A stretch of 64,000 bases of DNA from Escherichia coli. GTDB lineage: Bacteria; Pseudomonadota; Gammaproteobacteria; Enterobacterales; Enterobacteriaceae. Below, piece by piece: positions 13,287 through 13,744 of this stretch. The notes beneath the pieces are model-generated. The model was not told the DNA's origin. It saw only the letters and a program-made list of their open reading frames with translations, and made no database searches. Positions within the stretch are counted from its first letter, which is position 1. Each line of letters begins with the position of its first letter. The translations under genes were made by a program, and so were the position numbers. The DNA lies in NCBI RefSeq assembly GCF_044647545.1, contig NZ_CP172818.1; one strand, given 5' to 3'.

Positions 13287-13587
13287 CCTCTTTTTCAAGG
13301 AAAATTGCTCGAAAGTGACTGTTTGGTTAGGTTGCGAACAGCGTGGCGCTATATTCGTCAATTATTGTTTACTTTGTGTTTTTTCCCCACCCTACAGCCA
13401 TTCTTTTGTCATACAGGATGAAATTCGGAATTCAACAATAGTGGTGGGAAATTAATCTATGAAATACTCCCTTCAACAACACAGGATTACCTCATTTCTA
13501 CCACACATTTATTAGGAATACTATCTTTTATACATTATTACTTAAACCTCCAACCAAACCGAAAAAAATATTTTTTAAAATTAAAAC

Positions 13588-13645
13588 AAAAAAAAAAAAA
13601 AAAAAAAAAAAAAAAAAAAAAAAAAAAAAAAAAAAATAAAAAAAA
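13588..13645. repeat. Poly(A) tract (49 A, one T, 8 A)
   Basis: Direct observation. Confidence 0.9.
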
Positions 13646-13744
13646 GAAGCGTGGCCTACAGTGATGAATTGTCAAACAGTGATGTGGCAAACCCGGAACA
13701 TTTCCTTACTGCATATCAGAATCAACAAGCACCTCAATAACTGA

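Follow-up and report, generated by a model that had tools for sequence, protein, structure and literature searches.

An A-rich block between the metT tRNA operon and asnB in an Escherichia coli genome record is a damaged form of a native accessory segment

The A-rich block found between the metT promoter and the asnB terminator in contig NZ_CP172818.1 is a damaged and shortened native accessory segment of Escherichia coli, i.e., an artefact of sequence construction and not a product of biology. It occupies positions 13469..13650 (182 nt, + strand) of the window, the 64,000-nt stretch of DNA analyzed here. The block was classified as an artefact because it is absent from near-identical, independently assembled genomes, and because its pattern lies beyond known mutation and recurs in the same record. 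The true content of the site in this lineage is an ordinary accessory segment that has already been catalogued. The corruption most likely arose when a consensus was called, or an assembly built, on a K-12-like layout, an origin that is favored here with moderate confidence. The biological significance of the block is nil; its value is one of quality control, as no fewer than four stretches of the record are corrupted and its Rhs element is probably misplaced.

The sequence of the window revealed a run of 49 adenine residues at 13588-13636, a single T at 13637, and eight further adenines at 13638-13645, followed by GAAGC. This is in agreement with the first-pass annotation, which had described a poly(A) run of 49 plus 8 in an AT-rich block; the GC content was found to be 23% at 13440-13660 as against 51% for the whole window. 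The annotation had placed the block at 13440-13660, and an anomalous block is indeed present, but its extent is smaller. Positions 13440-13468 are conserved, normal sequence outside the anomaly, and the low-GC block (182 nt, ∼21% GC) occupies only 13469-13650, with the metT promoter on one side and the asnB terminator on the other. The expectation of an A49 tract arising by chance in the window is ∼2e-25. All nine homopolymers of 10 nt or longer in the window were located inside corrupted blocks, and no homopolymer run longer than 9 nt was seen in the 161 kb of E. coli DNA taken from IMT16316 and K-12 for comparison.

The neighborhood of the block is that of a normal E. coli chromosome. The seven-tRNA glnX-metT operon (metT-leuW-glnUW-metU-glnVX; 12514-13217, - strand) is served by a sigma-70-like promoter, TTGACG-17-CATAAT (13258..13286, - strand), which is kept in all aligned strains. 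A GC-rich hairpin (13742..13775), terminator-like on both strands and the same in relatives, is placed between a convergent ORF and asnB. Both the promoter and the hairpin had been considered native and were located where the annotation had put them. The asnB gene (13782..15446, - strand) is intact, and its protein is identical in very many public E. coli contigs. The convergent reading frame is represented by the intact 3′ end of a native 145-aa ORF (WP_000943487.1; 13651..13740, + strand), comprising its last 29 codons plus the stop codon; this portion is kept in K-12 too, and the window is 100% identical to strain IMT16316 from 13651 onward. The A49 tract is upstream of the tRNA promoter, at a distance of 300 nt; with respect to asnB, it is downstream of the terminator. 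As a separate observation on this locus, the ST648 reference assembly NZ_CP008697.1 carries only three of the seven tRNAs of the glnX-metT array; it is probably that public assembly, and not the window, in which the repeat was collapsed.

The metT-asnB spacer exists in natural long and short alleles. Alignment of three strains gave a spacer of 390 nt in K-12 and 822-823 nt in IMT16316 and SK1144, while that of the window was 573 nt. The spacer had been judged ∼180 bp longer than expected, and the measured excess over K-12 was 183 nt; compared with its own lineage, however, the spacer is 249 nt too short (573 vs. 822 nt in IMT16316). A counterpart of the block had been thought missing from K-12, and none was found there, because this spacer is known to be polymorphic and K-12 has its short allele. 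In this K-12-type allele, DNA has been cleanly deleted between TGGCC microhomologies, leaving the last 29 codons of the ORF. The long allele of IMT16316 and SK1144 encodes the hypothetical protein WP_000943487.1 in a 438-nt ORF, and the native 429-nt segment consists of the region upstream of this ORF together with the first 116 of its 145 codons. Of the 5426 complete E. coli genomes, 986 had the full long segment, the remainder retaining just its last ∼100 nt. The product has a signal-peptide-like N-terminus and matched no Pfam or NCBIfam family; judged by its sequence, it could be described as a secreted-looking hypothetical protein. In its native form, the long allele has 429-431 nt between GAAATACT and GGCCTACAG with an intact 145-aa ORF, whereas the window has 182 nt at this place, with the start of the ORF destroyed and only the last 29 codons left. 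The block shares its position and boundaries with the natural polymorphism, its flanks are those of a long-allele lineage, and it is derived from the 429-nt segment of that lineage. Natural genomes, unlike the window, have either the full segment or the clean deletion, and the 182-nt A-rich intermediate was found in none of them.

The genomes closest to the window are strains of the ST648 lineage. Local BLAST against an 85-kb region of IMT16316 showed 99.994% identity over 13651-45374, i.e., one mismatch and one gap in 31.7 kb, and the identity over 53394-62186 was 99.94% (local BLAST). Within 1-13800, the window differed from IMT16316 at 880 positions, all of which fell in 3001-3100, 3301-5500, and 13469-13650; the other ∼11 kb showed no difference. 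The native content of the site in this lineage is accordingly the 429-nt segment, and it is only inside the block that the window differs from it. The native segment was also present in all ST648-lineage genomes at 99.9-99.99% identity. A megablast search with 13100-13900 gave matches in 5424 of the 5426 complete genomes, none of which covered 80% or more of the query; the best matches consisted of two pieces around the block, spanning 1048 nt as compared to 801 nt in the window.

The relationship of the block to the native segment was evident from base composition and from subsequence analysis. The block contains A107 T39 C29 G7 (182 nt) and the native segment A107 T111 C87 G124 (429 nt). The longest common subsequence (LCS) of the two was 180 of 182 nt, as compared to 149.8 ± 3.9 for the shuffled native segment and 148.9 ± 8.3 (maximum 166) for random genomic 429-mers. 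Taken together, the LCS and the base counts lead to the conclusion that the block is the native segment minus ∼247 bases, with every A kept. The 107-nt prefix (13469..13575, + strand) is still recognizable as the region upstream of the ORF, the start codon, and the signal-peptide codons, with G residues dropped; 106 of its 107 nt are contained in the first 180 native nt (LCS z ∼12). The first ∼119 nt of the block are colinear with the first ∼180 native nt, with an alignment score of 70.5 (z = 6-10), the controls being 20 ± 5 for mononucleotide shuffles, 19.3 ± 5.5 for dinucleotide shuffles, and 18 ± 8.7 for random genomic 429-mers. In this colinear span, the native bases were retained to the extent of 40/40 for A, 36/53 for T, 26/41 for C, and 5/50 for G, and only six substitutions were observed. 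The edges of the block coincide with those of the K-12-type deletion (left-normalized insertion boundaries relative to the short allele), and together with the LCS they mark the whole of 13469..13650 as a deletion-only derivative of the native segment. Two G residues directly after 13468 are missing from the window, although both natural alleles read GGCC there. The stretch A49, T, A8 (13588..13645, + strand) accordingly consists of the leftover A residues of the distal ∼250 nt of the native segment, from which almost every G, C, and T has disappeared. The apparent poly(A) tail is thus made of native A residues that remained once the other bases had been dropped, and is neither a 3′-UTR nor an added tail.

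The block was absent from all 5426 complete E. coli genomes, which include ∼30 near-identical relatives, and no intermediate form was found among them. An exact search with a 36-mer specific to the block returned no match in 100,044 species-representative genomes and a metagenome collection. The aberrant ORFs expected from the corruption have no entry in public assemblies. Among ten public loci encoding an identical AsnB, none had an A or T run of 12 nt or more; the segment could be measured in six of the ten, where it was either ∼430 nt or absent, while the remaining four yielded no right anchor. A search of Rfam at a permissive E-value returned the seven tRNAs and sub-threshold noise only, with nothing in the block.

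Similar damage was observed at three other places in the window, all of them sites at which it differs structurally from a K-12-like layout. In the gltI upstream region, the stretch 3021..3078 (+ strand) shows small A-deletions followed by an inserted A28, and perfect native sequence resumes at 3079; this stretch is 10-35 nt from the point of divergence from K-12, the insertion site of IS5D. At ∼3300-5430 (+ strand), a gene for a rhomboid-family protease (native gene 3437-about 5310) is garbled roughly in register, with G and A homopolymers. The protein has 625 aa in relatives (WP_022645354.1), and the gene, which K-12 lacks, occurs in 3231 of 5426 genomes. This block harbors 444 substitutions, 24 extra bases, and 47 missing bases; 69% of the substitutions copy an adjacent base as against 31% expected, and the homopolymer content is 28.5% vs. 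7%. The ORF is shattered into pieces of 110 aa or fewer; errors become gradually denser and sparser along the block and all but vanish at 4240-4400. It is probably this block that the annotation had in mind as its first anomalous block. The third stretch, 45375..45479 (105 nt, + strand), is a perfect subsequence of the 190-nt K-12-type rhsC upstream region (LCS 105/105; controls 82 ± 3.2, maximum 92). It is likewise deletion-only, but it loses purines, unlike 13469-13650.

Two general explanations for the distribution of the damage were considered and rejected. A single failed base channel, i.e., drop-out of G, does not hold, as the rhomboid block gains G residues and loses C residues and the rhs junction loses purines. 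Similarly, the damage does not track rarity in the pan-genome, as the rhomboid gene is present in 3231 of 5426 genomes and is yet the worst-damaged block. Comparison with MG1655 showed that the only sizeable segments of the window without a K-12 counterpart are 3041-5429 and 13469-13651, both of which are corrupted, whereas the sites where K-12 has extra DNA are clean in the window. Absence from the K-12-type layout is hence a better predictor of damage than rarity in the pan-genome.

The record also appears to be composite. IMT16316 is empty between ybfA and ybgA, where 8 kb of the window (45375-53393) follow the layout of the K-12 rhsC element. The Rhs element at this position (45479..51030, + strand) comprises a 1394-aa ORF plus downstream genes, and over its 5552 bp it is 100.000% identical to the Rhs element that ST648-lineage genomes carry between rpmE and metJ. 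The 1394-aa protein has exact matches in ST648-lineage genomes, at the rpmE-metJ locus. The following 2.4 kb (51031-53393) contains two ISAs1/H-repeat copies in the K-12 architecture (ybfL/ybfD), and their sequence is ∼97% identical to ST648 copies but only ∼93% to K-12-type loci. The placement of the element, as judged from these sequence matches, is taken as evidence for a composite record, the Rhs element being probably misplaced from the other locus of the lineage, although it could in principle be a genuine second copy. At the far end of the window (62187-64000), the ybgO/ybgP fimbrial genes have intact ORFs and an allele near that of strain WEM25, with two mismatches after 62187. IMT16316 has no ybgO/ybgP and carries a FadR/GntR regulator and a TRAP-transporter island after abrB. 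The combination of the ybgO/ybgP allele of the window with an ST648-type abrB was found in no complete genome. Corruption of rhsC and ybgOP themselves was considered and discarded, as the ORFs are intact, the mismatches are biased towards the third codon position (34/27/104), and there is one in-frame gap relative to K-12 rhsC. WEM25 is excluded as a scaffold genome since it has no rhsC, and the use of MG1655 as a literal fallback reference is not supported, its ybgO/ybgP being ∼97% identical.

An origin of the block from DNA foreign to this site was also considered. From its resemblance to a 3′-UTR with poly(A), the annotation had suggested that the block came from a chimeric read, from an artefact of assembly, or from engineering, and had proposed a check for cDNA or vector contamination. 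The artefact is borne out by its absence from 5426 genomes and its co-occurrence with other corrupted blocks. The other sources, namely, poly(A)-tailed cDNA or a 3′-UTR, a vector, a chimeric read, or an engineered cassette lying between the tRNA operon and asnB, are so improbable that they can practically be set aside. An AT-rich body that ends in a long poly(A) run does resemble poly(A)-tailed retroposed or cDNA insertions, and ATTAAA is present at 13580-13585, only 3 nt ahead of the A tract, where a polyadenylation signal would be placed 10-30 nt ahead of its tail. AATAAA occurs solely within the tract, and both hexamers are what A and T residues surviving the base loss would be expected to form. 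The body of the block is a subsequence of a native E. coli segment (LCS 180/182; A 107 = 107), i.e., native sequence with bases removed, with no foreign homology. BLAST of the body against 72,556 plasmids and 50,697 phages gave no match above chance level (lengths up to 45 nt, E-values of at least 0.007), so that the suspicion of contamination found no support. No target-site duplication was found, the longest word common to the 40-nt flanks being 5 nt, and the same damage is present at other loci where no insertion is involved. A decay of the accessory ORF in vivo, by a process that removed non-A bases and left an A-only remnant with an A49 tract, is also very improbable, though somewhat less so. 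The sequence is in the record with perfectly native flanks, and sequence alone cannot formally prove that the tract is absent from the cells; if real, A49 would be the longest stable homopolymer known in E. coli. Such a decay would need ∼247 separate non-A deletions within 429 nt, next to 31.7 kb with one mismatch and one gap, and similar non-biological damage shatters another gene of the window. No intermediate form exists in any of the 5426 genomes, and the comparison DNA has no run above 9 nt. Long mononucleotide runs are prone to slippage, and an A49 tract would be very unstable in E. coli. A phase-variable homopolymer of a contingency locus should vary in length among relatives and lie in a promoter or 5′ coding region, whereas the tract occurs in none of the 5426 genomes.

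As the record was built, bases were lost over precisely those positions that are inserted with respect to the short K-12-type allele. Every A was retained, G residues were lost from the start, and the loss of C and T grew further along, so that the block decays from recognizable native sequence to a run of A before perfect native sequence returns at the right-hand boundary. The preferred origin is a consensus or assembly step against a K-12-like layout. A reference-guided consensus, or one drawn from a structurally heterogeneous pile-up, on a K-12-like template would render deletions cleanly and rebuild insertions badly, and the same step would have put the paralogous Rhs and ISAs1 sequence of the strain at the rhsC site of the template. 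These features, viz., damage limited to insertions relative to the K-12-like layout, clean deletions, a paralogous Rhs at the rhsC site, and independent lineage assemblies that are undamaged, are those of consensus or assembly errors at structural variants. The process is nevertheless inferred from the sequence, and the error modes differ between the blocks of the window: two are deletion-only with different base preferences, one shows in-register substitution, and one a net insertion of A28, with no single simple mechanism being obvious. The recovery of the rhomboid block at 4240-4400 is without evident reason, and the Rhs element could in principle be a real second copy. At ybgO/ybgP, the window matches neither the arrangement of IMT16316 nor the allele of MG1655 (∼97%); MG1655 as such was therefore not the plain template, and a true difference between the source strain and IMT16316 may exist at this place. 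We know of no documented pipeline that keeps every A while dropping other bases. The same corruption could possibly have been made in silico, by a generative or infilling model, a lossy reconstruction, or a deliberate or simulated degradation of real genome segments, an origin considered unlikely but carrying real weight. Genomic language models are documented to collapse into homopolymer and low-complexity sequence when they generate at length (10.64898/2026.01.17.700093), and this collapse resembles the window in its homopolymer runs and neighbor-copying low-complexity sequence in place of real genes. The garbling begins where E. coli lineages diverge structurally, i.e., where next-base uncertainty is high, and then locks again onto real sequence; the in-register neighbor-copying substitutions of the rhomboid gene also resemble low-confidence prediction. 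The documented form of collapse is, however, multi-kilobase and non-recovering, whereas the window re-synchronizes exactly and runs at 99.994% to one lineage for tens of kb. Free-running generation cannot give 31.7 kb at this identity, and only infilling would fit. Both alleles read GGCC after 13468, which leaves a model no uncertainty, yet the two G residues were dropped. The exact match of the A counts (107 = 107), together with common subsequences of 180/182 and 105/105, suggests column-wise deletion rather than sampling.

Scans of the window for annotation, for pan-genome content, or for novel elements would yield false pseudogenes (the rhomboid protease and the 145-aa ORF) as well as false novelties. 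The diagnostic applied here, in which an odd block is tested as a pure subsequence of the sequence of its relatives with one base fully retained, may be useful elsewhere. Beyond the differences described above, the window departs from IMT16316 at only four places. A 1-nt deletion of A at 15664 and a 4-nt deletion of AAGG at 55354 are both located at K-12 structural breakpoints, and the A at 15664 is missing in a second ST648 genome too. At 57670, the window has an extra G where ybgI of IMT16316 is annotated as frameshifted, and at the single SNP, at 42497, the window agrees with K-12.
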